64,000 nucleotides of DNA from Escherichia coli (GCF_036507355.1 NZ_AP027877.1); one strand, 5' to 3'; positions 1 through 24,000 are shown, counted from the stretch's first letter. Program-made: numbers and translations. Notes: a model not told the origin generated them from the letters alone.

Positions 1-2411
1 TTATCTTTCAGCATCAGCCCCCATTGGCACTGAGTCAGCGCCCGGAGAAATAGTCTGACTAAAATATCATCACTACGTTTGCTTCCGACTTTTAGTTTCA
101 TATCAGAAAACACCGTCCGGCAATAGAGAAAATCACACCAGTCATCCCAGTCAGCCAGGGTCTTCAGTGTATGCGTTTGCCGCCAGTCGTCGAAAAGGGA
201 GCGTTGCTGCAGAGCCTCTTCCATATTATCCCACGGGCGGGAAAACATCAGTAGATGCCCTTCATTCATGGCGGGCCGTACGGGCTGGCGTTTGAAATCG
301 AATTCCAGATTAAGACGGATATCCTGTTCCCGGGATACCAGATCGCTTTCCGAGAGCCACATCTCACGCGTTGATATCAACGTACTTCGGGATAACGTCT
401 GACCGGGTAAACGATTAAGGTAAAGATCTACCATATAGTCGTTATAGTCACTGCGTGGAATATCGGCAGGAGGTTTGACGCCAGCCCTGGCATGAACAAC
501 AGGTTTTCCCTGAATCGCTTTATAGGTTAACTGCCCCCGGGTTTTCATGGCGATAAGCTGGCTGACCTCATGCTTACATGTCAACATTGATGAACCCGGA
601 TCAACAATATCGCACAGCGACTGGAAGCGGGAAGACAGTGGACCGCTCATGTTTATCTTGTCAAGTGGGCAATTTGTCAAAAAACCATCGGTTGTGACGC
701 TGACAACCGATGAATCAGAAGGCAAAGCATTCATGAGTTCCCCGACAACGGCGCGGATAAATCCCGTCACATGCGCAGCAAAGAATGGCTGAGTAACCGA
801 TGATGGTGGGAGGGATCTGTTTAATCCACGGGCAGTATCAAAGGCGGTTTTGGCGCGAAGGCCCTGAGCAAGTTTGCCATAAAGCGAGTTGCCAATTTCT
901 TTCCAGAATTTCTCCTCCAAAGAACCCTTAATATGGCGATTACGGTTCTCACGGACCTGTTGAACAAAGGGAAGAAACACCGATGTTGATTCGCTGTTAT
1001 GTGGGGAGGTGTCACAGATCCAGGGGACGATGATCCCATTATGGATCGTCATCTCTGCCCCGAGCGACAGAGCAAGTTCGATTTCAGGTGCCGTTGCCCA
1101 TGATTCGCCACTTAATGGAAAGAATAACCCATATTGATCGGTCCGAACCGGCAGGCTGGGATAGGGAACTGATTCCGGGAACCGAAATGTGACAAGCGCA
1201 AATCCCATCACATGCCCACAGTAATCGTCCGGATTTTTACTGAGGCGGATGTTTCCGTAATCGGGTATGAGGATATCTAATAGCCCGGTGGTATACGCTC
1301 CAGCCAGATCGTAGTCATACCAGTGATCAGACGGTGTAACCCCCATCATAAAACACTCATTGCGTCCGCCGTGGTAACAGTTGATCGGGAACGTTTCAAA
1401 CAACTCTCTTGAAGGAACACTGGCGGGGTTTTTAATCGTCCGGAATGCCTGTTTCTCCGTGAGCCAGAGTTCACGGGTTTTAATGTGTGTCCCAAGGCAG
1501 ACTTCAGGAGACATATTGTTTTCTTTAAGTGTTTTGGTGAACCGTGAAACTGCCATCGCCCCGATGGTGGCGGGGACACGATCAATCATCAGCTCCCGGG
1601 CGCAAAAATTGCGAACCTGTAAAGCATAACGAACCGCAATCTCGGCATCCCGCAGAGCATAGGCTTCAAACCCTGCTCTGTCGCCCAGAAGATATTCACG
1701 CATATTGGTTATGGAATAAGGTGCAGGAATGGTGAGTTTGGGAAGACCCAGTAATTCACCACATTCAGCCAGACCCATACCCCCGGGAGTGATAAGCAGT
1801 GTATCGATGAAAGCTACGTTACTGCAACGCGGAGGGGAAGTTCGTTTGTCAAACATTATCTGTTCAGTCTTTACGCGACGTTCCTGCTGTTCATCAAAAT
1901 CGATACCGTAACGATTTTTGAAGCTGCTGACAGTACCGCGTATTCCTTTCAGAAGAATTTTGTAGTCTGACCAGAAATTGGCAAAGGAGGCGATATCCGC
2001 ACGAATGAAATGCGCATATATATTAATAATACCGGGCCATTTTGTAATCACACCCGTTTCAAGAAGCGGTGTAATCGTTTGACAGAGAAATTCCTTAAAA
2101 GACAGTCGGGATTTTTTCTGTGAGTCAGGTGGATAGATAATGTTCGATATACCAGTGTTATCGGGTAAGACGACATAACTCTGATATGACAGAATATCAT
2201 TCTGTTGTGTTTCAGGATTGAAAACATATTCGGTATCAAAACCGATATGGAGTGTCAGGTCACTTGAAATAACAGATACTTTTTTTGATGCAGGTGGTAT
2301 CACAGGATAATCATCAAGCGTTTTAGGTCTTTTAAGATTGAGCGCTGGCTCTGAAGTCACGGACTGATACCCCGAGGCGGCAGCGAGGATATCCTGCAAA
2401 TTATGGCTCAT
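1..2411 (-). CDS. Family-B DNA polymerase, piPolB-like (primer-independent PolB); C-terminal part truncated by the window edge
   Basis: Hand translation of the minus strand from ATG at 2411 (MSHNLQDIL...) is open to position 1, about 803 codons. Contains GFDTEYVF (ExoI-like), YDYDLAGAYTTG (motif A-like), KEIGNSLYGKLAQG (motif B), VVSVTTDGF (motif C-like) and AMKTRGQLTY (KTRG). Absent from the ORF track because it has no stop in the window. Confidence 0.8.
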   Translation of the reverse strand, partial: MSHNLQDILAAASGYQSVTSEPALNLKRPKTLDDYPVIPPASKKVSVISSDLTLHIGFDTEYVFNPETQQNDILSYQSYVVLPDNTGISNIIYPPDSQKKSRLSFKEFLCQTITPLLETGVITKWPGIINIYAHFIRADIASFANFWSDYKILLKGIRGTVSSFKNRYGIDFDEQQERRVKTEQIMFDKRTSPPRCSNVAFIDTLLITPGGMGLAECGELLGLPKLTIPAPYSITNMREYLLGDRAGFEAYALRDAEIAVRYALQVRNFCARELMIDRVPATIGAMAVSRFTKTLKENNMSPEVCLGTHIKTRELWLTEKQAFRTIKNPASVPSRELFETFPINCYHGGRNECFMMGVTPSDHWYDYDLAGAYTTGLLDILIPDYGNIRLSKNPDDYCGHVMGFALVTFRFPESVPYPSLPVRTDQYGLFFPLSGESWATAPEIELALSLGAEMTIHNGIIVPWICDTSPHNSESTSVFLPFVQQVRENRNRHIKGSLEEKFWKEIGNSLYGKLAQGLRAKTAFDTARGLNRSLPPSSVTQPFFAAHVTGFIRAVVGELMNALPSDSSVVSVTTDGFLTNCPLDKINMSGPLSSRFQSLCDIVDPGSSMLTCKHEVSQLIAMKTRGQLTYKAIQGKPVVHARAGVKPPADIPRSDYNDYMVDLYLNRLPGQTLSRSTLISTREMWLSESDLVSREQDIRLNLEFDFKRQPVRPAMNEGHLLMFSRPWDNMEEALQQRSLFDDWRQTHTLKTLADWDDWCDFLYCRTVFSDMKLKVGSKRSDDILVRLFLRALTQCQWGLMLKD

Positions 2412-2457
2412 AGTTAACTCCGAAAAAATGCCGGGAGCTGTGTCCCGGCATAAAGAA

Positions 2458-3096
2458 TCAAGATTTAATAACATTTACTACAGATTTGAAAATATCGGTT
2501 TTGCGTGATTCATCATCTACATGGATAAAGGAAACGAGTTTCCTGCCTGCTTTAATCAGGATACCGCGTTGCGTCTTTTCCACAGACGGGGTAACGTGTG
2601 CAGATAACAGACAATGTTCATGTAAATGAAGAAACTTTTTTGAGGCGTAGCCGCCATGTAATCGGGCTTGAATGTCAAGATACATATCATCAAGAGAACC
2701 GGGTTCTCCTGATTCACTCAATACCGGATAACCCTTCTTATCAAAGAGGTTAAGGATAGATTTACTATCATGTTCGAACAGGGTAACACCGTAAATGTAT
2801 TTCATTCGAAAGGTGAGGGAATCGGTGGTGTAGACCTCCTCCTGACGATTGAAATTTTTGAGACGCCTGGCTAATTCATTAAAAACAGCACGAGCAGTAG
2901 CCGTGTCCTGCAGGGTGTAGGTATAAAGTACGAAGCCATCTGTGCCGATGAGCTTTACTAAGTTGTCCATAATCGTGATAGCGAGAACTAATGCAAAGGA
3001 TAGATATTTTTCATCGTTGTCTACAGCTGTGTTTGCTGCTTCAGGAAGAATGTTCAGTGCATTATTAGCATTATTTGCTGTGTTCTTAGTAACCAT
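2458..3096 (-). CDS. Hypothetical protein, 212 aa, between the Xis-like gene and piPolB
   Basis: ORF track; start overlaps the stop of the upstream Xis-like gene by 11 nt; same strand as piPolB; no recognisable motif. Confidence 0.55.
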   Translation of the reverse strand: MVTKNTANNANNALNILPEAANTAVDNDEKYLSFALVLAITIMDNLVKLIGTDGFVLYTYTLQDTATARAVFNELARRLKNFNRQEEVYTTDSLTFRMKYIYGVTLFEHDSKSILNLFDKKGYPVLSESGEPGSLDDMYLDIQARLHGGYASKKFLHLHEHCLLSAHVTPSVEKTQRGILIKAGRKLVSFIHVDDESRKTDIFKSVVNVIKS

Positions 3097-3286
3097 TTAT
3101 ATCACCTTTAAGTTTGTTTTGACGATGTGCATTTTCCCACTCAACAATATCATCAAGAGAGAATCGTATAGCCCGCCCAATTCTGATGAAGGGCGGGAGT
3201 TTTCCGGGGTTGCGCGATATATCTGACGCAACCGTGGATGCAGAAAGATTAAATCTTTCTGCGAACTGCTTAATGGTTAAATACAT
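3086..3286 (-). CDS. AlpA/Xis-like helix-turn-helix excisionase or regulator, 66 aa
   Basis: Small basic protein MYLTIKQFAERF...RIGRAIRFSLDDIVEW typical of AlpA/Xis-family HTH proteins; sits immediately downstream of the integrase on the same strand. Confidence 0.6.
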   Translation of the reverse strand: MYLTIKQFAERFNLSASTVASDISRNPGKLPPFIRIGRAIRFSLDDIVEWENAHRQNKLKGDINGY

Positions 3287-3436
3287 AAACCTCCGGTTTC
3301 AGAGAATAAGAAGCCACGCGGATTTAATATCAATCCACATTCTGTGATGACTTAATGCAGGGCCCTGCAGAAGCATGCAATGACAATACCGTCCTTAAAC
3401 GAGTGTTGCATCAATCACGAATCACAGATCATAGGT

Positions 3437-4564
3437 TCATTTTGTGTCATAACTTTCTATGACCTGAGAAACCACTGCGTGTGATGTCGCTGCATTGTGA
3501 AAAGCGTAGCGACGGGTCGCCGTGAGTGAATGGTGATTTAGCAGATGGGAAGCGATTGCAATATCCCCGGTCGCCTGTAGTACCCGGGTGGCAAAGGTAC
3601 GGCGCAGGTCATGCATCCGCAGGTTATCAATGTTGGCATCCCGACAAATACGGGCAAAGGTTGCACGCGGATATGCCAGAGGGCGGGCATTGTCGGTTAG
3701 TTGTGGAAAAATGTAAGTTTTGCTGAGCATCAGGTCCTGCTGGCACTGGACAACTGCAATGGCTGGAAGTGCAAGTGGGCAGGTGAAAGGGTGTCCGGAC
3801 TTTGTATCAGGCAGTATGAGTTGATGCATATCCGGGTGCCAGTACTCCCATTTCAGGGTACATACCTCACCAATACGCATCCCCGTATAAAGAGCAAGCA
3901 ATATAGAATCAGCTGCCGGTGTTTGCAGCGCTGTTGCTGCGTTAATAAAGCGCGGGATTTCTGTCGCTGACAGTGTGCGATAGCGAATGTTATTTTCTTT
4001 CAGATAGCGGACATGTGACATCGGGGAATGTGTGATCCATCCAGCACGTACTGCCAGAGAGCATATTTTGGACAATATTGCGAGGATACGGTTTACTGTT
4101 GACGGACGTAATTTTTCCCGTAAGCCAGCAGCATATTGTTCTAGTTCTCCTGCCGTGATGTCGCGAAGTTGCCGCTTGCCCCAGAACGGGCGAACGTAGA
4201 GGTTGAGTTTTGACAACTCTGACTGAGGACTCTTTTTATACAACTGCAAATCCGGTAGCCACAGGTCATTGATGGCCTGTTCCACAGTGAATCGACGGGA
4301 CTGAACAGCAAGGCGATTTTTATCGGCAAGCAGGTTCATCACATGCTGACGGGCATCCTCAATGCAGAGATGAGGGAATTCACCCAGTGTTTCATATATA
4401 CGTTGATTTTTGATGGTGGCGCGAAAGGCCAGCGTGATCCGTTTTGGATATACCAGTGCACGCAGGTTTTGGCACTGAATATCACGGTATTCCTGACAAC
4501 CCGTGAGGGGATGTGGAAGTTGGTGAATTGATTTGTTGCTGAAACGCAGATCCAGAATAGGCAT
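3437..4564 (-). CDS. Tyrosine recombinase / phage-type integrase, 375 aa
   Basis: C-terminal catalytic signature: TGMRIGEV (Arg), MHDLRRTFATR (HxxR), LLNHHSLTATRRYAFH (catalytic Tyr). Confidence 0.9.
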   Translation of the reverse strand: MPILDLRFSNKSIHQLPHPLTGCQEYRDIQCQNLRALVYPKRITLAFRATIKNQRIYETLGEFPHLCIEDARQHVMNLLADKNRLAVQSRRFTVEQAINDLWLPDLQLYKKSPQSELSKLNLYVRPFWGKRQLRDITAGELEQYAAGLREKLRPSTVNRILAILSKICSLAVRAGWITHSPMSHVRYLKENNIRYRTLSATEIPRFINAATALQTPAADSILLALYTGMRIGEVCTLKWEYWHPDMHQLILPDTKSGHPFTCPLALPAIAVVQCQQDLMLSKTYIFPQLTDNARPLAYPRATFARICRDANIDNLRMHDLRRTFATRVLQATGDIAIASHLLNHHSLTATRRYAFHNAATSHAVVSQVIESYDTK

Positions 4565-4663
4565 CGTATTTCTCCTGTAAATGACACTGGAAAAATACGA
4601 TGTGAGGTTATAGTCTGCCAGTTACAGCTTTCACAGTTCATCAGGTGAAAAATGCTGATTCGG

Positions 4664-4699
4664 ATATAATGGCAACACAATTCCATGTCGCCATTATAT
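4664..4699. promoter_or_regulatory. Imperfect inverted repeat (ATAATGGCAAC ... GTCGCCATTAT) between ORF 4707-5837 and the integrase start
   Basis: Read directly from the sequence; could be a terminator for the upstream ORF or an operator in the integrase leader. Confidence 0.35.
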
Positions 4700-4706
4700 T
4701 AAGAAA

Positions 4707-5837
4707 CTACAGTTTCATGATCTTGTTCGCTATTTTTTCGAAGTAAACCTCATTCTTAAGAAGAGTGATATTGTTAGTTTGAACACCCAGACCACTGGAG
4801 GTTGACTGGAAGTTGAGTGAACCACTTATCACGGTGGACTTTCCTGATAAAAATGAAATCAACTCCTTGGAAGATGGTGCCCACTCAGGGTTTAAGAGTA
4901 ATGCAATGTAGATATATGTCTTACGAAGCAATTGTTCGATATCTTTTTTATACCCCGTAGTGTTTTGCTTACCTTTAATGCAAATTGATTTGATTATGAA
5001 CTCATCAGGGCTGGTTAAAGGCGTTTTAAACTTATTCAGTGATCCATCGTTATGAATGACTTCATAAGGCAGCATAGATAAAATGATCAATGCAATCATT
5101 TTAGGATGATAAAGGTAGTTATCACGAATGATTTTTCCTGCCTTCATTGTATTGAGTGTTGTTTGAATAAATACAAAAAGATATTCAGAGCAAAAGTAAC
5201 AAAACACAAGCCAGGATAGGTCAATGGCTGGAATGTTAATATCCTTAGGTAGTTTGTTTAGCCAGTATTCAGACTTCAAAAAGGTCCTGATTTCAACAGT
5301 ATATTCATGCATTTTTGCGCTGAAATCAAGCATTGCTACTTGACCTGATTGTTCCGTAACTGTGTGGTCTATAAATGTTAGTGTATTGCACATTTTATCC
5401 AGCGTGTTTTGAAAACAAGAAAGGAGTTCGGCATTATTATTACCATTAACCGCAGATGAAAGTTCAGTTGCAATAAATGCATCCAGTAGCATACAGATTT
5501 TTTTCGGAATGACATTTTTACGGGATTGCTGTGAATAGAAATATACTGCCAGTAAATTAAAGGCAGTGCACTCCTTTTTTAACCATTGTTCGAGCACTGG
5601 GACGTGCTGAAAAAAATTGATATGCTTAGCAGTAGATGCTGATGGAGATAGTACATGAAGAATATCTACAGCAGGCTTCATTTGCAATATTTGATCGGAT
5701 TCGGTAGTCGTCATTAGTTCCAGTAATTGCTGTTCAGAAAATAGTTTAGACAGGTGATCAATGTCTTTTTGGTATTGGTTAAGTTTTTTTAAATTCCCCG
5801 GTACACGGGTTACATTGTTTTTCATTTTCTCGAACAT
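4707..5837 (-). CDS. Hypothetical protein, 376 aa, AT-rich, no recognisable domain
   Basis: Long ORF in the track; low-GC codon usage; no Walker A, HEXXH or nuclease motif seen. Confidence 0.6.
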   Translation of the reverse strand: MFEKMKNNVTRVPGNLKKLNQYQKDIDHLSKLFSEQQLLELMTTTESDQILQMKPAVDILHVLSPSASTAKHINFFQHVPVLEQWLKKECTAFNLLAVYFYSQQSRKNVIPKKICMLLDAFIATELSSAVNGNNNAELLSCFQNTLDKMCNTLTFIDHTVTEQSGQVAMLDFSAKMHEYTVEIRTFLKSEYWLNKLPKDINIPAIDLSWLVFCYFCSEYLFVFIQTTLNTMKAGKIIRDNYLYHPKMIALIILSMLPYEVIHNDGSLNKFKTPLTSPDEFIIKSICIKGKQNTTGYKKDIEQLLRKTYIYIALLLNPEWAPSSKELISFLSGKSTVISGSLNFQSTSSGLGVQTNNITLLKNEVYFEKIANKIMKL

Positions 5838-6239
5838 AATTTTATCCTCGTTTGAATTAATACACTGATTTAAAAAGTAGCATGTCGTGTTAGCGAGGTA
5901 ATCCTAAAACGTGAATGGGATCAGGGGCAAGCTTGAATCTGCGTAAGGATATGGCTTAAATTTAATGGTGTAATTAGTGGATTAGAGGCTTATAGCTATT
6001 TAAATACAATAAGTTATGACGGTGTGTGGCGGGTGTAAATCGGTTAGTTTTTATGGTTAAAATATGAGCGCTATGAGGTTTCAGAGATGGTGGTGTTTAA
6101 ATTACATAAAACCAAGGCCTGATAATCAGTATCAATACCGGAACGATGTCATATGATTAACACTGTCTATGGCATTGATAATGATCTATGCAAGGCTGAA
6201 ATTAGCTCTGCTTCACGATGATATAGTGTTCTATAAAGA

Positions 6240-7475
6240 TTAAAAGGAAATAAACAGAGCCTTTCGCCGATGAATCAATGTGCTGATTTCCCTCAAATCA
6301 GCCTCAATACTACCAACATCACCAAAGACTTCACCTCTAATCTCACTTCGATTTTTCATGAAATTGGTGCTTAATAAGCTTTCTTTTTTTAATGCCATTA
6401 ATTTTGGTTTTATATCGTTATAGAAATGCTTACGGCTTACCCTGATGCTATGAATCGAGTAGTAAACTGTTTTATACATCAAAAATATAAGTAACTGGCC
6501 GAGAAGATATTCTTTTTCAATGTATTTATATTGAGAGGATTTTTCGCGTTTCGCCAGGTAGAAAACATGAGGTGCGATGATGGTGGGGATAAAATCCAGT
6601 GCTGGAGAGGTTTTGGTTTTTTCTGTTTCTCTTCCGGATTGAAGATGTTGAAGTACAGAGTATACAATGCTTAAAATTATGGCGTTACTTATATTATTAA
6701 TTGCAGTTGGGTAAATATGCAGATTGCTTATCAATTCTGAAAGGCAAAGTAAAACACCAGTGATGTTGGGTTTTCTGCCGGAGATTGTGGTGCTGTTGAA
6801 AATGTGACGATTCTTACGACTTATATTGACAAGTTTATGAGTGCAGAACTCTATATGTTCGACGATTTTATCTTGACTATTTTTAATGTATTTTGAAATG
6901 TTAGTGATCCGGCCATTCAACGTTAGTTCATCAAGCAATATATCATTTTTAATATTGCGAATTTCATCGCAATGTTCACATTGAGAAACTATCTCATGTA
7001 ATACATAACTCGAAGTATTGCGTGACGATGCTGATATGTAATCTAAAATGGAATGCTCGACTTTGATTTTTTGTTTGTATTTTTTAATGCACTGTTTGAT
7101 TGTTTTTTGTAGAGTATTTGAGATGTGTTTTTTATATTCTTTTAGAAAATCTTGCTCTAAAAAGAGTGAGGAGAAGATCAACTGCTGGCGAGATAATTTA
7201 ATCTCAGGCTTGATCAATTTAATCCGAAAAACTCTTCCCTCCAACTCATAGCTGAACATGGAAGATAAGTCATAGTGGGGTGATAAATGTTCGAGTAACG
7301 ACATTCGTGTATTCATTAGCCGCTTGAATTTATGGTCAGCATACATAAGTGTTTTTTTTATTTGCTCATCATAAAGTGGGCCGATAGCGCAGTTGGCAAT
7401 ACTCATTCTATCCGGAGACCTCCAGTCAGCAGGGGAATCACATTGACGGTCATCATTACTATCAAAGGGCATCAA
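6240..7475 (-). CDS. Hypothetical protein, 411 aa, AT-rich, no recognisable domain; has hydrophobic segments
   Basis: Long ORF in the track; divergent from hsdM across a ~300-bp intergenic region. Confidence 0.6.
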   Translation of the reverse strand: MMPFDSNDDRQCDSPADWRSPDRMSIANCAIGPLYDEQIKKTLMYADHKFKRLMNTRMSLLEHLSPHYDLSSMFSYELEGRVFRIKLIKPEIKLSRQQLIFSSLFLEQDFLKEYKKHISNTLQKTIKQCIKKYKQKIKVEHSILDYISASSRNTSSYVLHEIVSQCEHCDEIRNIKNDILLDELTLNGRITNISKYIKNSQDKIVEHIEFCTHKLVNISRKNRHIFNSTTISGRKPNITGVLLCLSELISNLHIYPTAINNISNAIILSIVYSVLQHLQSGRETEKTKTSPALDFIPTIIAPHVFYLAKREKSSQYKYIEKEYLLGQLLIFLMYKTVYYSIHSIRVSRKHFYNDIKPKLMALKKESLLSTNFMKNRSEIRGEVFGDVGSIEADLREISTLIHRRKALFISF

Positions 7476-7778
7476 CGTTGCCGATTATGGATGATGTCAG
7501 CTTCACACACCAGTACGGGTGATATATGGATCATCATTACCCCAACGGCAGTTTTACACCATGGCTAATATGGATGCTATCTTACTAAGATAATTGGTTT
7601 TTAGCGAGTGACGAGCCAGGTTGTGTCAGTCTGTCTCATGTCGATATTACGGGGATGATGCAAACCTGAATGCTGCGATATTGGCGTGTCAGGGGAGGCA
7701 TCTTACGGTATCATTTACCGCAATTTTTAAGATGCAAAGCCCTGCATCGCTAGCTTTTTCTTCAGACCAGGATGATTC

Positions 7779-11246: not shown

Positions 11247-11295
11247 TGAATCTTCATGTGACCAGTAGCGAGTAGCGCCAGAAAGAAAAGGATTA

Positions 11296-14200
11296 ATGAT
11301 GAACCAGACGTACACGCCTAAATTCCAGGAAGAATACAGCGCCAAAATTCCGGCACTGACGTTACTGACCAGCCTCGGCTGGACGTTTTTATCTCCGAAA
11401 CAGATTATGGATTACCGGGGCTATAAACAGGATGAGGTGGTGCTGCGTCCGGTTCTGCGTGAAGAGCTGTCGAAGCGTTCCTTTATGGCGGGTGGCAAAA
11501 CCTGCCAGTTATCGGAAAAAGCACTGGATAACCTGATATCACAGGTCTGTTCTCCGGCGCTGAATGAAGGGCTGCTCAAAGCCAATGAACGGATGTATAA
11601 CCATCTGCTCTACGGTATCGCCGTCACGGAGTTTGTCGATGGCAAGAAGGTGAACCCCACCATTGCGCTGATCGACTGGGAACATCCGGAAAGTAACCAG
11701 TTCCATTTTACCGAAGAATTTACGGTATTGCGGTCAGGCGGTGTCGAAACCCGCAGGCCGGATATTGTGTGTTTTGTGAATGGTATCCCGCTGGCCGTCA
11801 TTGAAGCGAAAAGCCCGGCGGGTCACGGCAAGAAAGGGCCAACCATTGACGAAGGGATATCCCAGAGTATCCGCAATCAGCTCAACGACGAAATCCCGCA
11901 GCTGTTTGCTTACAGCCAGATATTACTGTCGATTAACGGGCATGACGGGCGCTACGGTACCTGTCATACACCAATGAAATTCTGGGCGGCATGGCGCGAA
12001 GAAGATATTACTTACGCGCAGATGTATGCGCTGCGCAACCATAAGTTATCGACTGAACAAATTCATGCGTTGTTTGATGATCGTCCTTCAGTCGATCTCA
12101 AATGGTATCAACAGTTAATCGATGGGGGGGAACTGGCAGTCAGCGGGCAGGATAAGCTGCTCATCAGTCTGCTTTCACCGGAACGTCTGCTGGAGATGAC
12201 CCGCTTCTTCACCCTGTTTGATAAAAAAACCGGAAAAATTGTTGCCCGCTATCAGCAGGTGTTCGGTATTAAAAGACTGCTGGAACGCATCAGTACCCGC
12301 AGACCAGACGGGGGCAGGGAAGGTGGGGTGATCTGGCATACCACGGGGTCAGGTAAATCTTACACCATGGTATTCCTCAGCAAGGCGCTGATTCTTCATG
12401 ACAGCCTGAAGCAGTGTCGTATTGTGGTGGTGACGGACCGCGTGGACCTTGAAGGGCAGCTCAGCGGCACTTTTGTCTCTGGTGGCGAACTGGCAGGGAA
12501 GGATGATAAGGCCAAAGCGATGGCAACCTCAGGTCAGAAGCTGGCACAGCAGATTGGCTCTGGTAAAGAACGTATAATCTTTACCCTTATCCAGAAATTT
12601 AACTCAGCGACAAAATTGCCTGAATGCGTCAACACCAGCCCCGACATCATCGTTCTGATTGATGAAGGACACCGTAGCCAGGGTGGTGAGAACCATGTGC
12701 GAATGAAACTGGCACTGCCGAACGCCGCCTTTGTGGCATTTACTGGTACGCCATTGCTAAAAGAAGATAAGACCACCAATAAATTCGGGCCGATTGTCCA
12801 CGCTTATACCATGCAGCGAGCGGTAGAAGATAAAGCCGTTACACCTTTGCTGTATGAAGAACGTATTCCCGACCTTGAGGTTAACGATCGGGCAATAGAT
12901 GCCTGGTTTGATCGTATTACCGATGGGTTAAGCGAAGCGCAAAAAGCCGACCTTAAGCGTAAATATGCCCGTAAAGGTGAGGTTTATAGTGCAGATGATC
13001 GCATCCGTCTGATCGCACTCGATATCGCCACGCACTTCTCGAAGAATATTGATGAGGGGCTGAAAGGCCAGCTTGCCTGCGACAGCAAGATTTCCGCCAT
13101 CAAATATAAAAAGTATCTTGATGAAGCCGGGTTGTTTGAGTCAGCAGTAGTTATCAGCCCGCCGGATACCCGGGAAGGGAATACCGAAGTGGATGAAAGC
13201 AAACTGCCGGAAGTGACGAAATGGTGGAAGGATAATGTCGGCACGCAGGATGAGTCTGTGTATACCCGTAATATCATCAGTCGTTTCGATACCGATGAGA
13301 AGCTCAAATTGCTGATAGTCGTTGATAAACTGCTCACCGGGTTTGATGAGCCGAAGAATACCGTGCTGTATATCGACAAGCCGCTTAAGTCCCACAACCT
13401 TATCCAGGCGATTGCGCGGGTGAACCGACTGCATCCACTAAAAAAGTTCGGTCTGCTGATTGATTATCGCGGTATTCTGGCTGAGCTGGACACGACTATC
13501 GGCAAATATCAGGACCTCGCCTCCCGAACTCAGGGCGGATACGATATCAAAGATATTGACGGGCTGTACAGCGCCATGAGCTCTGAATACAAGCGCCTGC
13601 CGCATCTGTATAACCAGCTGTGGGCCATATTTGCCGGTGTTAAAAACAAAAATGATACTGAGCAGTTACGTGCGGTACTGGTGCCTAAAATGGAAGAACG
13701 TGACGGAGAGATGGTCGATATCCATCAGAAAACCCGTGATGATTTCTTCGAGGCGTTAACGGCCTTTGCCGGATGCCTGAAAGTGGCACTGCAGTCCGCT
13801 ACCTTCTTCACCGACAAGAGCTTTACGGAACAAGACCGAAATCTCTATAAAGAAACCGTAAAACAGATGTCCAGCCTGCGCCAGTGGGCGATGCAGGTAA
13901 GTGGAGAGCAGGTCAATTATGACGACTACGCTGAGCAGGTGAAAAAACTGCTGGATAAGCATGTCACCGGCGTTGAGGTTCGTGAACCGGATGGCGTGTA
14001 TGAAGTCGGTAAAATGGGCAAGAGCGAAAAGCCCGAAGAGTGGGACAACAATAAAACCCGCAATGAAACCGACATCATTAAAACCCGCGTGACGAAGATG
14101 ATTGAGCAGGAATTGCGTGATGACCCGTATGCTCAGGAGGCATTTTCAAAACTCCTGCGTATGGCTATCGAAGAGGCTGAAAAACTGTTTGACCATCCGC

Positions 14201-14583
14201 TGAAACAGTACCTTTTGTTCCGTGAATTTGAAGAACAGGTTGAAGCCCGTAAGCTCAGCGATATCCCGGATGCACTGGCGGTAAACAAGCATGCTCAGGC
14301 GTATTACGGTGTATTTAAAAAAGAGCTACCTGAGGTTTTTGCGGTAAACGACGTTCAGGTGCAGGATAAGTGGACCAAGCTGGCTTTTGAAGTGGACAAC
14401 ATTATCGTCAAAGCGGTGGCAGAAAACTCCCTGAACCCCCAGGACATTGAGAAAGTCGTTAAGACAAGTCTGCTACCACTGCTGTTTACGGCCTGCCGGG
14501 AAATTGGTGCCGGAATGAATCAGGTTAACCGTATTGTGGAAACCATCATCCAGATACTGCGCGTTGGTTTGATGAAATCATGA
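11296..14583 (+). CDS. hsdR: Type I restriction enzyme, restriction (helicase-nuclease) subunit R
   Basis: 1095 aa; Walker A TGSGKSYTM and DEAH-box LIDEGHRSQ; typical HsdR N-terminus. Confidence 0.95.
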   Translation: MMNQTYTPKFQEEYSAKIPALTLLTSLGWTFLSPKQIMDYRGYKQDEVVLRPVLREELSKRSFMAGGKTCQLSEKALDNLISQVCSPALNEGLLKANERMYNHLLYGIAVTEFVDGKKVNPTIALIDWEHPESNQFHFTEEFTVLRSGGVETRRPDIVCFVNGIPLAVIEAKSPAGHGKKGPTIDEGISQSIRNQLNDEIPQLFAYSQILLSINGHDGRYGTCHTPMKFWAAWREEDITYAQMYALRNHKLSTEQIHALFDDRPSVDLKWYQQLIDGGELAVSGQDKLLISLLSPERLLEMTRFFTLFDKKTGKIVARYQQVFGIKRLLERISTRRPDGGREGGVIWHTTGSGKSYTMVFLSKALILHDSLKQCRIVVVTDRVDLEGQLSGTFVSGGELAGKDDKAKAMATSGQKLAQQIGSGKERIIFTLIQKFNSATKLPECVNTSPDIIVLIDEGHRSQGGENHVRMKLALPNAAFVAFTGTPLLKEDKTTNKFGPIVHAYTMQRAVEDKAVTPLLYEERIPDLEVNDRAIDAWFDRITDGLSEAQKADLKRKYARKGEVYSADDRIRLIALDIATHFSKNIDEGLKGQLACDSKISAIKYKKYLDEAGLFESAVVISPPDTREGNTEVDESKLPEVTKWWKDNVGTQDESVYTRNIISRFDTDEKLKLLIVVDKLLTGFDEPKNTVLYIDKPLKSHNLIQAIARVNRLHPLKKFGLLIDYRGILAELDTTIGKYQDLASRTQGGYDIKDIDGLYSAMSSEYKRLPHLYNQLWAIFAGVKNKNDTEQLRAVLVPKMEERDGEMVDIHQKTRDDFFEALTAFAGCLKVALQSATFFTDKSFTEQDRNLYKETVKQMSSLRQWAMQVSGEQVNYDDYAEQVKKLLDKHVTGVEVREPDGVYEVGKMGKSEKPEEWDNNKTRNETDIIKTRVTKMIEQELRDDPYAQEAFSKLLRMAIEEAEKLFDHPLKQYLLFREFEEQVEARKLSDIPDALAVNKHAQAYYGVFKKELPEVFAVNDVQVQDKWTKLAFEVDNIIVKAVAENSLNPQDIEKVVKTSLLPLLFTACREIGAGMNQVNRIVETIIQILRVGLMKS

Positions 14584-15335
14584 GTGAAAAAGAATCGCCA
14601 TCAATGAAAGCGTTACGCATTGTCTATGGTGATGATGTCATCACCGTACAGTGTGTTCCGCGTCAGGTCGTAAAGGGCAGGGTGCTCATCAAGGTTTATC
14701 CGGACTGCCGGGTTGTGGCCTCTGTACCGCCTGAAACACCGGAGCACGAGGTATTGTCTGCGCTGAAAAAAAGAGGGCGCTGGATATACCAGCAACTGCG
14801 TGATTTCAGGGAGCAACAGACACACATTGTTCCGCGTCAGTATGTCAGCGGAGAAAGCCATTATTATCTCGGTAAGCAATATCAGTTGAAAGTGACAGAA
14901 GACGCTACTGTGCCGCAACGAGTGAAAATGTTGCGTGGGCGTCTGGAAGTGACTGTCAGACACAAATCGGCAGAAAAGATTAAAGCCTTGCTGGCTGAAT
15001 GGTATCGGGAACGTGCCAGAGATGTTTTTCAGCGCAGGCTTGATTTACTGATTCCGCAGACCCTTTGGGTCAGTGAGCGTCCTCCGATACGTCTGCGGGC
15101 GATGCAAACGCAATGGGGCAACTGTTCAGCAAAAGGCTGTCTGACCCTGAATCCATGGCTGGTTAAGGCATCCTCAGAATGTATCGATTATGTTTTGCTA
15201 CATGAGTTATGCCATGTGGCTGAGCACAACCACAGCGAGGAGTTTTACCGTCTGATGGGGCAGGTTATGCCTGGGTGGGAAAAGGTCAAGAAACGACTGG
15301 ATGGGATGGCTGGGATGTTGTTGGCTGATATGTAA
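14580..15335 (+). CDS. DUF45 / YgjP-like (M48-type) zinc metallopeptidase, translationally coupled to hsdR
   Basis: 251 aa; HEXXH motif HELCHVAEHNH near the C-terminus; ATGA overlap with the hsdR stop. Confidence 0.8.
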   Translation: MSEKESPSMKALRIVYGDDVITVQCVPRQVVKGRVLIKVYPDCRVVASVPPETPEHEVLSALKKRGRWIYQQLRDFREQQTHIVPRQYVSGESHYYLGKQYQLKVTEDATVPQRVKMLRGRLEVTVRHKSAEKIKALLAEWYRERARDVFQRRLDLLIPQTLWVSERPPIRLRAMQTQWGNCSAKGCLTLNPWLVKASSECIDYVLLHELCHVAEHNHSEEFYRLMGQVMPGWEKVKKRLDGMAGMLLADM

Positions 15336-15393
15336 CTTATCAATATGAGTTCTTAAGGGTTTGGTCAGTCTCGTTAATGTAGGGAGTATAATA

Positions 15394-17232
15394 ATGAGTA
15401 AGTTAGATAATAAAATTGAAGCACGCCATCGTAATTTGTTTGATGTTCTAAATGCGCAAAAATATACCGTTGATTACTTTCAGCGCGAGTATAGCTGGGG
15501 TGAGAAACATATTGAAGAGTTGGTTACAGACTTAACATCTGCGTTTCTCAATGAATACACCGTCGGTGATTCTCGGGAGCAGGGTGAAAACTACAATAAT
15601 TATTACTTAGGACCATTTGTTGTGAGTAGTAAAGATGGGAAACGGAGTATTATTGATGGTCAGCAACGACTGACTTCATTAACTTTATTTCTAATTTACC
15701 TCCATAACCTTCAGAAAGAACTTAAATATGAAGAGAAAATAGAATCAATGATTTTCTCCGAGTTACGTGGCAGCAAATCATTCAATATAGTAGTTGAAGA
15801 CAGAATACCTTGCATGGAAGCATTGTTTAATTTTGGTAGCTATAGTTTAGTTGATGGGGATGATGAGTCAACCCATAACATGGTGGAGAGATATCAGAAT
15901 ATCACAGATGCTTTTCCTGATGAATTAAAAGGTCAGGCTTTTCCTTTTTTTATCGACTGGCTTAAGTATAACGTTATTATGGTTGAGATAGTTGCCTATT
16001 CAGATGAAAACGCATATACCATCTTTGAGACTATGAATGACCGAGGATTAAATCTTACTCCGTCCGAAATGCTTAAAGGTTTTTTACTTTCACGCTTTCA
16101 TCAGGGAGATAAACGCCAAAAGGTAAATGAACTCTGGAAAAAAGCGATGATGGATTTAAAAAACTATGATAAAGATGAAGACCAACGTTTTTTCCAGTCA
16201 TGGTTGCGTGCTCAATATGCTGATACAATACGCCCGGGTAAAGCTGGTTCAAAAAATGAAGACTTTGAAAAAATAGGTACGCGTTTTCATAGCTGGGTTA
16301 GAGATAATCTTCAGGCGGTGGGATTGGACCCAGATAATGGTGAGACATTCGAACGATTTATACAAAAAAACTTTTTGTTTTATTTGAATGCCTATACACA
16401 AATACTGAATGCTGAGAGAGCATTAACGCACCAACTGGAATATGTATTTTATATCCACCATTGGGGTATTGCACCTACTTTAAGTTTCCCTTTGATGTTG
16501 GCTCCATTAAATGTAGGTGACAGTCCTGATGCTGTGATAGCCAAAATAAACCTGGTGGCGCGCTATATTGAAACATTTGTTGTTCGTCGTTCTGTTAATT
16601 TCCGAAAATTCTCTGCCAGTTCTATTCGTTACACAATGTACAGTCTTGTTAAAGAAATTCGTGGTAAAAGTATTGAAGAATTAAAAGATTTGTTATCTAA
16701 GAAGTTATCCGAAATGCCAGATACTTTTGCAGGAATGGAAGAGTTTCGTCTCCATGGTCAAAACTATCGTTTTGTGAAGTTTTTGCTTTCTCGTATAACT
16801 GCGTGGGTTGAGCAGCAAGCCGGAATGAGTACAACCTTCATTACATATTATCAGCCAGAACACGGTAAGCCATTTGAAGTCGAGCATATTTGGGCCGATA
16901 AATATGAACGTTACTCTGATGAGTTTGAACAAGAGCACGAATTTAACAATTACAGAAATCGCTTAGGTGATTTGGTTTTATTACCTAGAGGCTCAAACCA
17001 GTCATATGGTGATTTGTGTTACGATCAAAAGCAACCTCATTACATCAAAGAGAATCTCCTGGCTAAATCGTTATGCCCATTGGCATATATGAATAACCCT
17101 AATTTCAATCAGTTGAGAAATGTATTCGGATTGCCTTTCAAACCACATGATTCATTTAAAAAACAAGATGTCGATGAACGACAGTCTTTGTATAAAATAA
17201 TTTGTGAGAATATTTGGGACCATAATTTATAG
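15394..17232 (+). CDS. DUF262 (ParB-like, DGQQR) / DUF1524 (His-Me finger) protein, GmrSD-like type IV restriction candidate
   Basis: Motif IIDGQQRLTSL in the N-terminal half; C-terminal EVEHIWADKY...NRLGDLVLLPRGSNQS. I place the start at ATG 15394 with SD agggag 7 nt upstream; the track uses TTG at 15361. Confidence 0.75.
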   Translation: MSKLDNKIEARHRNLFDVLNAQKYTVDYFQREYSWGEKHIEELVTDLTSAFLNEYTVGDSREQGENYNNYYLGPFVVSSKDGKRSIIDGQQRLTSLTLFLIYLHNLQKELKYEEKIESMIFSELRGSKSFNIVVEDRIPCMEALFNFGSYSLVDGDDESTHNMVERYQNITDAFPDELKGQAFPFFIDWLKYNVIMVEIVAYSDENAYTIFETMNDRGLNLTPSEMLKGFLLSRFHQGDKRQKVNELWKKAMMDLKNYDKDEDQRFFQSWLRAQYADTIRPGKAGSKNEDFEKIGTRFHSWVRDNLQAVGLDPDNGETFERFIQKNFLFYLNAYTQILNAERALTHQLEYVFYIHHWGIAPTLSFPLMLAPLNVGDSPDAVIAKINLVARYIETFVVRRSVNFRKFSASSIRYTMYSLVKEIRGKSIEELKDLLSKKLSEMPDTFAGMEEFRLHGQNYRFVKFLLSRITAWVEQQAGMSTTFITYYQPEHGKPFEVEHIWADKYERYSDEFEQEHEFNNYRNRLGDLVLLPRGSNQSYGDLCYDQKQPHYIKENLLAKSLCPLAYMNNPNFNQLRNVFGLPFKPHDSFKKQDVDERQSLYKIICENIWDHNL

Positions 17233-17290
17233 CAAAGTTAGGGTGTTAATTAATCTGTAATGGCATCATGATTTTTAAAAGGAGGTTGAA

Positions 17291-18418
17291 TTGCGTTCTG
17301 AAACGTTTTTTGTCAAATTTATTGAACAACTGAAAGGTATTTCGGTTGAGGATGATGTTGAATTCAATTTTTTTGAATTGGGTGGTTCCGGATATCTCGA
17401 AAATCCAACTACGGATTTGATGGCTTTGTTTATGGGAGCCCAGAAAATGGTGCCGCCATGGTTGCTCAAAGCATTGCTATGTTGCCTGGATGATTCCCTC
17501 GATGTTGATGAAATTGATTTCACTTCTCTGGAGCTAATGAGAGAGGCCCGAACAGAAGATGGGAAATATATTGATATTCTTATCAGACATGATGAATTCA
17601 TTATAGGTATTGAGCATAAAGTTCTGGCTGATACATATAATCCTTTTCCCAGCTATGTAAGTCTCATTGATAGTTACGGCGGCAACAATCAAAAACTATT
17701 TCGCTGTATATTAAAGCCTGACGGTAACAGCGCTAAAGGCGTAGACGGTTGGCAACTGATCAATTATTCACTGCTGCTGGAAACCGCCATTCGACGTCTG
17801 GGGTTGGAGATGATGAATCAAGAGTTCAGCAAGTGGACTGTTTTTTATCAGGAGTTTTTAAGTCATCTTAAAAAATTGAGTGAGGTTAGTATGGATAAGG
17901 TATCTGATAAAAATGTGGAGTTTGTCACTGAAAATTTCTCAGCTTTGATAAAATCGGTTCAACTGCTGGAAATGTACCAAAATGCTATCACCGAGGAAGC
18001 TAAATCGGTTGTCTCAGAGGTATTGCCTGATATTCATATTGCAACAGGTATTAATAACTGGAAGGGTTACTATAAAGCAATTCATCTGATGCCGGGATGC
18101 TGGGGGCAAGGTAAAACAGGAATTACGTTAGTTTATCGCCCTTCAGAGGATGGACGAGATGAAGCTGAGTTCTACGTATATGGATGGATACATTCAGATG
18201 ATTACCCTGAAGTTAATGCACTAAAAGAAGAAATAAGAGTTGCTTTAAGTGCTGGAGATTTCATTCCAACAGCTAGCCCTGAGGACTATGAAGTATCAAT
18301 TACTGGGAAGGGGAAAGTGCTTGAACTGAGTTTTTGGGGGAATACGAGAAGCAAAAAAGATGCACTGGTTCTTCTTAAGGATATGACTAAGTGGATGGAC
18401 TCAAAAATAAGAACATAA
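17291..18418 (+). CDS. Hypothetical protein, 375 aa, with PD-(D/E)XK-like motif
   Basis: TTG start preceded by strong SD aaaaggagg; YIDILIRHDEFIIGIEHKV resembles a D...E-x-K nuclease core; remainder has no recognisable domain. Confidence 0.5.
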   Translation: MRSETFFVKFIEQLKGISVEDDVEFNFFELGGSGYLENPTTDLMALFMGAQKMVPPWLLKALLCCLDDSLDVDEIDFTSLELMREARTEDGKYIDILIRHDEFIIGIEHKVLADTYNPFPSYVSLIDSYGGNNQKLFRCILKPDGNSAKGVDGWQLINYSLLLETAIRRLGLEMMNQEFSKWTVFYQEFLSHLKKLSEVSMDKVSDKNVEFVTENFSALIKSVQLLEMYQNAITEEAKSVVSEVLPDIHIATGINNWKGYYKAIHLMPGCWGQGKTGITLVYRPSEDGRDEAEFYVYGWIHSDDYPEVNALKEEIRVALSAGDFIPTASPEDYEVSITGKGKVLELSFWGNTRSKKDALVLLKDMTKWMDSKIRT

Positions 18419-18522
18419 AGTAATATGACTGAGTGATGACGATCTTTTTTAAATTGTGGATTATTAGGCTGGTAATTGAAGCGCCGAATAGACAGATATT
18501 GGAATAAAAGGAGAATATTCAA

Positions 18523-19704
18523 ATGATTTATCAGTGTGATACTTGCAGTAGAACGACTTTTGAGGTTAATTGTCCCTGGTGTAGTGGAGTTTCGCCTGTA
18601 AAAACGTCTGCATGGGGTTCAGCATCATCGACCGCACAAGCAATAGGCATACAACGTATGACACCATTGAATCCATCGTTTTATCCCGAATTTCAGTATC
18701 GTTCAAAGGGTGTTCTAAAAGATCTATTTGGGAAAAAGAAAGAGCAAACTCAGCTTAATCAATTGCTTGAAAATGTTCTCAAAAAATACTCCAGTTTAAA
18801 AGATCCATATTTTACTAACTTCATTTACACTTCCAGATTCTCACATAATAATAAATCGGAAGCAGATTACTCAACAGATAATGGTACATACTCCGAATTA
18901 CAACTTTTCCGTGAGGTGTTGGTCAGAAAAGGGTTCAATGAGCTTGAGCAGTTACCTGAGCTATTAGATAAATTACTCCTTACCACGTCATTTAACGCTC
19001 TTTATTATGGTTTCGCTAAGGAAGTTAAACGGCATATTAAATCCACACTTACTGAATCCTTGAAGTCATGGATTGAGGAAGCGGGTACCACTTTTAGGGC
19101 AGATCTTTCATTGTTTCTATTCTATATATGGAGCAATAAAATAGAGTTCTCATCAGTAGAGTTCAATGAAAAAGCGGAGGCTACGCCTGGTGTTCCTTTA
19201 GTTTCATTTGATGAAGTTAAAAAATACTTAGCTGTGTGCGAACATATTTATTTTGATATTCTGGTTGATAGATTAGCTACACGGCTCGAACATTTTAACC
19301 CTAACAAATTCGTCACCATGTATTTAGTTGATGCAATGGACGGTTTCCAGTTTGAAGATTTCCTTGTGGAAGTATTCCAGACTATGGGCTATGACGTCAA
19401 AGAAACCAAGAGAACGCAAGATCAGGGGGCAGATCTCTTCGTCACTCGATTTGGTAAGGATATGGTTATTCAGGCGAAAAATTATTCTGGTTCTGTAGGT
19501 AACTCGGCGGTGCAGCAGGTGATCTCTGCTAAAACATTCTATGGTTGTGATGAGGCGATGGTTGTGACTAATTCCTACTTCACACGCTCTGCCAAAGAAT
19601 TAGCTGAATCAGCCTTGGTACGTTTGATCGACAGGGATGAACTGCAAAAGTATCTGGATGATTACAATCAGAAGATAATTGAAGATTTCCAGTCAAACTC
19701 GTAA
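18523..19704 (+). CDS. Restriction endonuclease-like protein: N-terminal Cys4 zinc-ribbon plus C-terminal Mrr catalytic domain
   Basis: N-terminus CDTCSRTTFEVNCPWC; C-terminus GADLFVT...VIQAKNYSGSV...VVTNSYFTRSAKELA...LIDRDEL, colinear with the E. coli Mrr catalytic region as I recall it (D...Q-x-K). Confidence 0.75.
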   Translation: MIYQCDTCSRTTFEVNCPWCSGVSPVKTSAWGSASSTAQAIGIQRMTPLNPSFYPEFQYRSKGVLKDLFGKKKEQTQLNQLLENVLKKYSSLKDPYFTNFIYTSRFSHNNKSEADYSTDNGTYSELQLFREVLVRKGFNELEQLPELLDKLLLTTSFNALYYGFAKEVKRHIKSTLTESLKSWIEEAGTTFRADLSLFLFYIWSNKIEFSSVEFNEKAEATPGVPLVSFDEVKKYLAVCEHIYFDILVDRLATRLEHFNPNKFVTMYLVDAMDGFQFEDFLVEVFQTMGYDVKETKRTQDQGADLFVTRFGKDMVIQAKNYSGSVGNSAVQQVISAKTFYGCDEAMVVTNSYFTRSAKELAESALVRLIDRDELQKYLDDYNQKIIEDFQSNS

Positions 19705-19889
19705 CTTTGCAGTCATATAGATATAGCAAAGGACAGGTAGGCCTCCGTGAGAGGGGGACTTACCTGTGCAGATTCTGTGCTCAAAGTTATCCAAGTCTAT
19801 CTATTTACTGCCAATTACAGTAAAATGAGTAAGCAATTACAGCAAAGTTTCGCAATGCACTGCTATGTAACTCATTGATCCTGCGTAGA

Positions 19890-19945
19890 ATTTAAAATCC
19901 CTCGGCGTTCGCGCTGTGCGGGTTCAAGTCCCGCTCCGGGTACCA
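19890..19945 (+). repeat. 3'-terminal 56 nt of tRNA-Leu (leuZ-type; anticodon loop to CCA), the att-site remnant at the right boundary of the element
   Basis: ATTTAAAATCCCTCGGCGTTCGCGCTGTGCGGGTTCAAGTCCCGCTCCGGGTACCA matches the 3' part of tRNA-Leu(UAA) as I recall it; the 5' acceptor and D-arm are absent upstream, so this is not a complete tRNA gene. Confidence 0.8.
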
Positions 19946-19988
19946 TGGGAAAGATAAGAATAAAATCAAAGCAATAAGCAGTGTCGTG

Positions 19989-20013
19989 AAACCACCTTCG
20001 GGTGGTTTTTTTG
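19989..20013 (+). terminator. Rho-independent terminator (aaccacc ttcg ggtggtt + T-run) downstream of the tRNA remnant
   Basis: Perfect 7-bp stem, 4-nt loop, run of 7 T. Confidence 0.65.
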
Positions 20014-20140
20014 TGCCTGCAACTTGTCGTTACACCCTCCTTAATTTTTAATCACCGGCAAAGCCACTCAAAAAGTATCTCTGATACGGACCGGCATGTA
20101 AGATAGGTGTTGGCGAGTTGAGATCCACAAGGAAAAGCGT

Positions 20141-20806: not shown

Positions 20807-20867
20807 GAAGTCAAATTGGGTGTCAGCGTTAATTCTGGCACCCAATAAGGAATTTGAGGCTATCTAA

Positions 20868-22079: not shown

Positions 22080-22269
22080 GCTTTCTTCTGTCCTGACGAT
22101 CTTTATGAGTGATATCTGCGGCGCAGGTTAAGGCATAACGGCTGCTTCGTCAAACCGACGTTACATATGGTGTAAATATAAATGTACAATAAAAAGCATT
22201 CAGTCCTGCGCTGGCGCAAAGTCTTCATAAGCGGCAATCGCTACGCTAGGCTTTTTTTGAGGAGGAACG

Positions 22270-22509: not shown

Positions 22510-22545
22510 TTTGAAACGGCGGCAGAAACCTGCCGCCGGAGAGCA

Positions 22546-23916: not shown

Positions 23917-24000
23917 GTCCTGATGACGGTGGATGTGACTATCGCTGAAGATGTGAAGCCGCTACTATAACGGCTTTCAAAATGCTATCAGGAGTTTACG

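Follow-up and report, generated by a model that had tools for sequence, protein, structure and literature searches.

A bimodular element at the leuZ–yecA site of Escherichia coli, read as the distal part of a recombinant pipolin

Introduction

The window analysed here, a stretch of 64,000 nucleotides from Escherichia coli (GCF_036507355.1, NZ_AP027877.1), raises the question of what occupies its first 20 kb, in which a truncated DNA polymerase gene, recombination genes and a series of defence genes are followed by a fragment of a tRNA-Leu gene. Pipolins are integrative mobile elements that encode a primer-independent family B DNA polymerase (piPolB). Positions 1–20022 of the window are almost certainly the distal ∼20 kb of an E. 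coli pipolin, because the truncated first gene is that of piPolB.

Pipolins and piPolB were described by Redrejo-Rodriguez et al. (2017; PMC5695915), and a survey in E. coli followed (Flament-Simon et al., 2020; PMC7385651). The E. coli elements lie at a Leu-tRNA gene, are bounded by attachment (att) repeats, carry two recombinases, one of them beside an excisionase, and frequently contain restriction–modification (R-M) genes (PMC7385651). Bimodular pipolins with a cargo of type I R-M, PDC-S12, PDC-S26 and HEC-06 systems, as well as derivatives lacking piPolB, have also been reported (Mateo-Caceres & Redrejo-Rodriguez, 2024; PMC11551731). The same paper places the tRNA-Leu hotspot between pgsA and yecA and, in Enterobacterales pipolins, an IntP2 integrase with the excisionase near piPolB and an IntSXT integrase near the tRNA; the IntSXT-type gene next to leuZ is considered to be the likelier main integrase, and the IntP2-type gene beside Xis the secondary one (PMC11551731). 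A survey cited there gives a leuZ-site occupation of 21%. Pipolins, the leuZ site, the att repeats and the layout of a core with defence cargo are thus already known from publications of 2017, 2020 and 2024. An earlier note on this DNA, made from the sequence alone, had described a bimodular integrative element with minus-strand mobility genes and plus-strand defence cargo; the description was right, and its author had reached the published model independently.

In this study, the gene content, the integration site, the distribution and the ancestry of the element were analysed, using 5426 complete E. coli genomes and closely related elements at the same site. The family names IntP2 and IntSXT follow PMC11551731.

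Identification of the element

A piPolB is recognized as a family B polymerase in which KTRG replaces KxY and which has a KH-X8-KTRG extension and a variant PolC motif. The first gene of the window encodes the KH-X8-KTRG motif KHEVSQLIAMKTRG at residues 613–626, D368 and a TDG variant of PolC at 574. The hallmark residues of the biochemically characterized E. coli enzyme are K613, H614, K623, R625 and D368 (PMC5695915), and those found here have the same numbers as published. Primer-independent DNA synthesis has been shown for the 3-373-03_S1_C2 enzyme (PMC5695915). The window gene has 100% nucleotide identity to the RM14721 gene annotated as 'DNA polymerase', and every E. coli piPolB gene that was found is at least 95% identical to it in nucleotide sequence. 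A search for sequence relatives of piPolB among solved structures, at E values of up to 0.01, found none.

The genes downstream are arranged in two opposed blocks. A run of minus-strand genes from piPolB to orf411 fills the first 7.5 kb and ends at 7472, all genes in 7779–19704 are on the plus strand, and the minus-strand core and the plus-strand cargo diverge from a 300 bp intergenic region. The plus-strand orientation that the earlier note had given for the recognizable defence genes was borne out by gene calls and family models. Its statement that the first 4.6 kb hold all mobility genes, each in minus-strand orientation, is correct within the window, where the four genes occupy 1–4564; however, the minus-strand block itself continues to 7472 with two further AT-rich orphan genes, and related elements have a plus-strand IntSXT-type integrase gene beside leuZ. 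A promoter and terminator scan of the boundary at 4.4–8.0 kb gave nothing above the shuffled expectation.

The recombination genes next to piPolB have intact reading frames. The translation of the 375-amino-acid recombinase contains RIGE, HDLRRT, NHH and RRY as catalytic-type residues. The adjacent 66-amino-acid helix–turn–helix (HTH) protein is probably an excisionase, as judged from its family matches; it scores 24.1 bits against TIGR01764, under the cut-off of 28.8, and its homologues carry HTH_17. Between these genes and piPolB lies orf212, for which no match was obtained in Pfam, PHROG, NCBIfam or PADLOC; a gene of 200–220 amino acids is found at the same position in the pipolins of Edwardsiella and Serratia.

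The left end of the element is known from its two closest relatives, RM14721 and HKUOPY1, in which the same element (28.3 and 26.6 kb, respectively) lies between an intact glyW-cysT-leuZ and yecA with exactly two att copies each. In both, the second copy is ∼6.6 kb left of the equivalent of window base 1. The intact tRNA-Leu and the other att copy, which the earlier note had expected to the left of position 1, are therefore found there in RM14721 and HKUOPY1, while attL of the present genome is deduced from these near-identical relatives. The part of the relatives that lies left of the window contains, in order, the 3' end of piPolB, a small open reading frame (ORF), the insertion sequence (IS) IS1, a truncated gene, a DUF2787 gene, two small ORFs, a plus-strand gene annotated as 'site-specific integrase' and, next to leuZ, a frameshifted minus-strand gene. 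DUF2787 and WYL are further core genes of gammaproteobacterial pipolins. Both relatives have DUF2787, but WYL, which the pipolins of Edwardsiella and Serratia encode, is annotated in neither of them; IS1 occupies that interval.

Integration site and crossover

Positions 19890–19945 are exactly the last 56 nucleotides (nt) of the leuZ tRNA-Leu(UAA), starting with the final base of the anticodon stem's 5' strand, and 185 bp separate them from the stop codon at 19704. The tRNA-Leu 3' repeat claimed at this distance beyond the last defence gene is thus an exact match, but only part of the full direct repeat, which comprises 133 nt (19890–20022) on comparison with attL of the relatives. The 56 nt copy occurs once in the window and was matched by none of 100 window shuffles. 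No tRNA was detected in the window by ARAGORN or at the Rfam gathering threshold, as expected for a 56 nt tRNA fragment, and the copy was found by direct comparison instead. In K-12, ARAGORN assigned the anticodon UAA to the locus, which identifies it as leuZ; genes for tRNA-Cys and tRNA-Gly lie in front of it. K-12 and ES5, whose sites are empty, have a single copy of the 133 nt repeat with no duplication, and in the window attR abuts yecA, at the site of E. coli pipolins (the tRNA-Leu between pgsA and yecA).

Over 133 columns, the attR of the window differs from the attL of RM14721 and HKUOPY1 by three substitutions and one 2 nt indel (96.2% identity). At the variant positions, the attR of the window, RM14721 and HKUOPY1 agrees with the empty sites in K-12 and ES5, and the attL of RM14721 and HKUOPY1 carries element-specific bases. 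The attL of a decayed island in WP4-S18-ESBL-09 has the chromosomal bases at these positions and diverges at its 3' end only. The attL and attR variants of the two intact elements are distributed as expected for site-specific recombination with a strand exchange to the left of them all; the crossover is accordingly placed, by inference from the sequences, within 19890–19952, a span that runs from the anticodon loop to the CCA end of the tRNA and 7 nt further. The element would have entered by tyrosine-recombinase-mediated recombination between attP and the 3' half of leuZ in the glyW-cysT-leuZ operon, so that a complete tRNA gene would have been restored at the left end, with the 133 nt repeat (attR) remaining beside yecA. 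The 3' half of the leuZ tRNA would then come from the element, and the copy starting at 19890 would be the displaced junction of the chromosomal side. The attP is predicted to carry the element variants CATCAGAAT--AATC downstream and TAGA upstream of ATTTAAAATCCC.

Directly to the left of attR, a stretch of 140–150 bp (19740/19752–19889) is conserved; most of the 571 genomes that match the query 15361–19889 do so over its last ∼130 bp. This stretch is probably the P arm of attP, judging by its position and conservation. A k-mer comparison of the P and P' arms found CAATTACAG twice within 19740–19889 and CTGTGCTCA shared between the arms; these are only short repeats, too weak to be claimed as integrase arm sites, and such a role would be a guess.

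Distribution among E. coli genomes

An artificial empty-site query was constructed by joining pgsA-glyW-cysT-leuZ, with one att copy, to yecA-tyrP. Of the 5426 genomes, 3782, including K-12 MG1655, have an uninterrupted empty pgsA-glyW-cysT-leuZ-yecA site, and in about 30% the site is not empty. In occupied genomes the right-hand match sets in exactly with the repeat, whose first base is query position 948. Only 77 genomes cover window positions 1–21000 to at least 80%. The island is therefore accessory, being absent from many members of the species and having a precise empty site. The earlier proposals that pipolin-free E. coli have an empty leuZ–yecA junction and that the 20 kb are mobile rather than core are both upheld, presence in all E. 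coli being excluded.

When the segments are counted as separate totals, piPolB has a match of any kind in 294 genomes, always chromosomal, and is covered to at least 80% in 284; the corresponding numbers are 284 and 259 for orf212-Xis-Int, 660 and 403 for the type I R-M cassette, and 571 and 150 for the trio of DUF262, PD-(D/E)XK and Mrr genes. The R-M cassette is commoner than the pipolin itself. In WP4-S18-ESBL-09 it occupies the same site without piPolB or an integrase, beside IS3 (13548–28214 of the fetched locus). Small decayed islands at the leuZ site contain a truncated IntSXT-type gene and the conserved right end without IntP2, a gene content that fits, weakly, the assignment of IntSXT as the main integrase.

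Outside E. coli, a pipolin of Edwardsiella tarda agrees with the window element in its core and nearly so in its cargo. One of Serratia marcescens retains piPolB, orf200, Xis and Int together with a homologue of orf376, but has a cargo of UvrD/PD-(D/E)XK, methyltransferase and ResIII genes instead.

Other states of the hotspot were also seen. Strain 2EC1 has islands in tandem, an additional att copy and Hhe and MzaE genes (15038–15093 and 20128–20183 of the fetched locus). TUM1886 retains a 4 kb remnant (16009–20400 of the fetched locus) with a truncated IntSXT-type integrase and a pair of AAA ATPase and HNH endonuclease genes, which is Septu-like by name only. In the S. marcescens pipolin, the pair of a 246-amino-acid hypothetical protein and an IntSXT-type integrase is encoded beside the cargo end (1–1659 of the fetched sequence) instead of beside DUF2787, and no tRNA was found in the 21 kb fetched; this placement of IntSXT could reflect a second tandem element or a different att position.

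Mosaic ancestry and composition

The two relatives resemble different parts of the window copy. Positions 1–12000 have one mismatch to RM14721 in 12,000 nt (99.992% identity), and the left half of the element differs from HKUOPY1 by 1–4%. At 12400–19700, RM14721 differs by 150 bases and HKUOPY1 by one in 7,301 nt (99.986% identity). According to the mismatch profiles, the closest partner switches from RM14721 to HKUOPY1 inside hsdR, at ∼12.0–12.4 kb. In the flank at 20023–30000 there are 133 mismatches to RM14721 (98.6% identity) and 158 to HKUOPY1 (98.4% identity), so that divergence in the element segments is about one-hundredth of that in the host chromosome. Judged from these profiles, two circulating variants have recombined to give the window copy, which is RM14721-like on the left and HKUOPY1-like on the right. 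The low divergence of the element and its recombinant structure directly support recent horizontal movement and an exchange of cargo by homologous recombination.

The element (1–19889) has a GC content of 43.5%, compared with 49.7% at 20023–64000, and both GC and GC at third codon positions (GC3) drop in the element when the boundary is crossed. The earlier impression of a cargo visibly AT-richer than the core genes to its right holds for the element as a whole, but the composition is patchy. It amounts to 46.6% at 1–4600, 36.5% at 4601–7700, 47.9% at 7701–15340, which holds the R-M block, and 37.9% at 15341–19889. The GC3 values of hsdM (0.59) and hsdR (0.57) are near those of host genes, and the DUF262 gene has a GC content of 36.5%. 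The low GC content is driven by the orphan genes, hsdS and the three right-hand nuclease genes.

Gene content of the cargo

The features of the element and its boundary are collected in Table 1.

Table 1. Features of the element and its right-hand boundary, with positions in the window
Feature	Position	Strand	Evidence or remark
piPolB	1–2411	−	803 codons open, no stop; last ∼63 codons left of window
orf212, orphan gene after piPolB	2458–3096	−	ORF
Xis/AlpA-type HTH protein, 66 amino acids	3086–3286	−	phrog_66 'excisionase and transcriptional regulator', E 4e-7
Tyrosine recombinase, 375 amino acids, IntP2-type	3437–4564	−	phrog_1 integrase, E 9e-50; XerC/D-like matches
orf376, AT-rich orphan, 36% GC	4707–5837	−	No family match
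orf411, AT-rich orphan, 410 amino acids from ATG, 35% GC	6240–7472	−	No family match
Divergent intergenic region, left edge of exchangeable cargo	7436–7778		Homology to piPolB-less WP4-S18-ESBL-09 island begins at 7436
hsdM, type I R-M methyltransferase	7779–9302	+	TIGR00497 283 bits (cut-off 242.75); PADLOC MTase_I E 3e-133
hsdS, specificity subunit, two target-recognition domains	9292–10566	+	PADLOC Specificity_I 708 bits
YecA-like UPF0149/SEC-C protein (PADLOC candidate PDC-S12)	10563–11246	+	PDC-S12 E 2e-99; NF007704 357 bits
hsdR, type I restriction subunit	11299–14583	+	TIGR00348 461 bits (cut-off 284.55); PADLOC REase_I 1363 bits
M48/YgjP-like metallopeptidase, last R-M operon gene	14580–15335	+	RefSeq name in relatives; Edwardsiella homologue has PF01863 YgjP-like
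DUF262-domain protein (HEC-06/GmrSD-like nuclease candidate)	15394–17232	+	PADLOC HEC-06 E 5e-41; RefSeq name 'DUF262 domain-containing protein'
PD-(D/E)XK nuclease family protein (PADLOC candidate PDC-S26)	17291–18418	+	PDC-S26 E 1e-50; Edwardsiella homologue has PDDEXK_4
Restriction endonuclease, C-terminal Mrr_cat	18523–19704	+	Pfam Mrr_cat E 1e-29, residues 270–377
Conserved element end, probable P arm of attP	19740–19889		Homology common to every island fetched at the site, whatever the cargo
attR, 133 nt direct repeat: 3' 56 nt of tRNA-Leu(UAA) (19890–19945) + leuZ terminator	19890–20022	+	Comparison with attL of relatives
yecA, first chromosomal gene right of element	20141–20806	+	RefSeq annotation in relatives; adjoins leuZ in empty sites

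Defence models match all of the plus-strand genes except that of the M48 peptidase, which is named by RefSeq and by the YgjP-like Pfam family of its homologue. The genes for HsdM, HsdS, the YecA-like protein, HsdR and the M48 peptidase form one tight operon; with HsdM, HsdS and HsdR encoded together, as family models identify them, it constitutes a predicted type I R-M system. Conserved repeats lie inside hsdS at 9887–9924 and 10493–10530, and hsdS is the most variable segment in comparison with HKUOPY1. The YecA-like protein of the operon is 57% identical to the chromosomal YecA, which is encoded by the first gene outside the element.

A GmrSD-like protein combines an N-terminal DUF262 (ParB-like NTPase) with a C-terminal DUF1524 HNH-type nuclease; in the DUF262 protein of the window, the matches to HEC-06, Orf5 and SspE lie mainly over the N-terminal DUF262 part. 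The Mrr_cat endonuclease has further PADLOC matches to the ZorD nuclease domain, PDC-S02 and mREase_IV. Beyond the last of these genes, RM14721 has a minus-strand SIR2-family gene of 1793 bp (31705–33497 of the fetched locus) in place of window positions 19705–19739. The window and HKUOPY1 have 35 bp at this site, a presence/absence polymorphism of a defence-type gene at the element end.

Orphan genes

Two genes of the minus-strand block, orf376 and orf411, gave nothing significant in Pfam, NCBIfam, PHROGs or PADLOC; a match of orf411 to AbiJ_NTD4 (E 0.013) was regarded as noise. The AlphaFold2 model of orf376 was poor (pLDDT 62), and a Foldseek search of the PDB with it gave nothing better than E ∼1; that of orf411 (pLDDT 41) was unusable for a fold search. 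Homologues of orf376 with 39–70% identity occur in Edwardsiella, Salmonella, Phytobacter, Serratia, Lelliottia and Hafnia. The gene adjoins the integrase gene in the pipolins of E. tarda and S. marcescens and is kept across at least three genera. For orf411, 13 homologues were found, all of them in Enterobacterales; one lies beside the orf376 homologue in the Edwardsiella pipolin, and the Serratia pipolin has none. In E. coli, the pair is covered to at least 80% in 234 genomes and matched in any way in 426, and ∼190 genomes match the query (4600–7700) solely over its last 100–265 bp. It is a rather doubtful proposal, drawn from conservation and position, that orf376 and orf411 form an unrecognized pipolin module, which might act against phages or plasmids or serve in maintenance or regulation.

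Alternative explanations

The same genes could have come together at leuZ in other ways. Two independent islands in tandem, a small pipolin followed by a separate R-M and nuclease defence island, would mean that the cargo is not part of the pipolin. Arrays do occur at the site, 2EC1 having an extra att copy between two islands, and the R-M cassette is both more widespread than piPolB (660 against 294 genomes) and present without it in WP4-S18-ESBL-09. However, an internal att copy is absent from window positions 1–19889 and from the full RM14721 and HKUOPY1 elements, and neither an att-like sequence (up to three mismatches over 42 nt) nor an integrase remnant was found at 4.6–7.8 kb. The cargo is also without an integrase of its own, the order of core then cargo recurs in Edwardsiella, and the islands lacking piPolB carry IS elements and truncated pipolin genes, so that they look like decayed pipolins. 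A tandem origin is thus very unlikely. A prophage or phage satellite integrated at leuZ is less credible still, to the point of being negligible: prophages use the same att site in other E. coli (PMC7385651; PMC11551731) and the integrase is of a phage-related type, but neither the window nor the full elements of the relatives contain phage-type capsid, tail, lysis, terminase or replication-initiator genes, and PHROG matched only the integrase, Xis and, weakly, the polymerase. Both readings were rejected on these grounds.

A pipolin by descent that has become a fixed, non-excising island, spreading only through other movements of chromosomal DNA followed by homologous recombination, is a more serious contender, although still an improbable one. 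The mosaic junction inside hsdR is a product of homologous rather than site-specific recombination, no episomal form has been detected in E. coli surveys (PMC7385651), decayed islands are frequent at the site, and the elements of the relatives contain no conjugation or packaging genes (see also PMC11551731). On the other side, the integrase and Xis frames and attR are intact in the window, and no stop interrupts the 803 codons of piPolB that it contains; furthermore, the variant pattern of attL and attR keeps the signature of a site-specific event, and strains with flanks ∼1.5% apart share a near-identical element as far as the att boundary.

Several observations also weigh against the interpretation as a mobile pipolin itself. 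The left end of this element lies outside the window; for attL, the intact leuZ and the IntSXT integrase, the near-identical relatives are the only source. The core of these relatives contains IS1, between the DUF2787 and piPolB genes. Sequencing data have shown no excision of E. coli pipolins (PMC7385651), and current mobility is therefore unproven. Three islands fetched at the site contain neither piPolB nor an intact integrase, which indicates that decay is common.

Proposed organization and relation to known elements

As a pipolin, the element consists of a conserved maintenance core (piPolB, orf212, Xis, the IntP2-type integrase and orf376) opposite a variable, nucleic-acid-targeting defence cargo, which would be reshuffled through homologous recombination with other pipolins and other elements. 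It may replicate as an episome driven by piPolB and may still be able to excise, and the cargo is expected to protect against phage. The acting integrase is presumably the IntSXT-type gene left of the window, which the literature favours.

In comparison with the E. coli pipolins described previously (reference 3-373-03_S1_C2; PMC5695915, PMC7385651), the numbering of the KH-X8-KTRG motif, the att repeats at the Leu-tRNA (attR in the window, attL in the relatives) and the patchy distribution among strains are shared, as are two tyrosine recombinases, one beside an excisionase, and frequent R-M genes (PMC7385651). Nothing essential differs; the window copy is a recombinant and is without the SIR2 gene that precedes attR in RM14721. 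With the bimodular enterobacterial pipolins (PMC11551731) it has in common a core near the integration site, a variable distal defence cargo, the same systems and cargo exchange. Strand polarity is not stressed there; the window has a minus-strand core and a plus-strand cargo, and the IntSXT end of the relatives is on the plus strand. Other defence islands that integrate at tRNA genes in E. coli, such as P4-like satellites and integrative islands, likewise have a tyrosine integrase, a duplicated tRNA 3' end, a low-GC cargo and a hotspot, but lack a family B DNA polymerase of their own and the pipolin core genes. Casposons and polintons also encode their own PolB; however, they use Cas1 or a retroviral-type integrase and terminal inverted repeats, whereas the element in the window has tyrosine recombinases and direct repeats at a tRNA gene (PMC7385651).

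The analysis carries little weight as a discovery, the same defence systems being already in print. The smaller gains are a clean annotation of the window, a recombinant with its junction in hsdR that fits the published idea of cargo exchange, the argument from att variants that places the crossover in the tRNA part, and a pointer to two conserved orphan genes.

Chromosomal flank

To the right of the element, the first ∼183 nt of flhD are fused directly to the 3' end of flhA at window positions 32969/32970 (context 32786–33890). The ORF at 32977–33498 corresponds to the C-terminus of FlhA and is followed by flhE, yecT, argS and cutC/MicL. The genes flhC, motAB, cheAW, tar, tap, cheRBYZ, flhB and most of flhA are deleted, ∼16 kb as a rough estimate. 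No IS is present at the junction, and none of the 5426 complete E. coli genomes spans it. Owing to the deletion from flhD to flhA, as read from the sequence, the strain should be non-motile. At the Rfam gathering level, the MicL small RNA (inside cutC) was found at 37724–38031 on the plus strand and ES036/CssrF at 41967–42009 on the minus strand, both of them ordinary chromosomal small RNAs.

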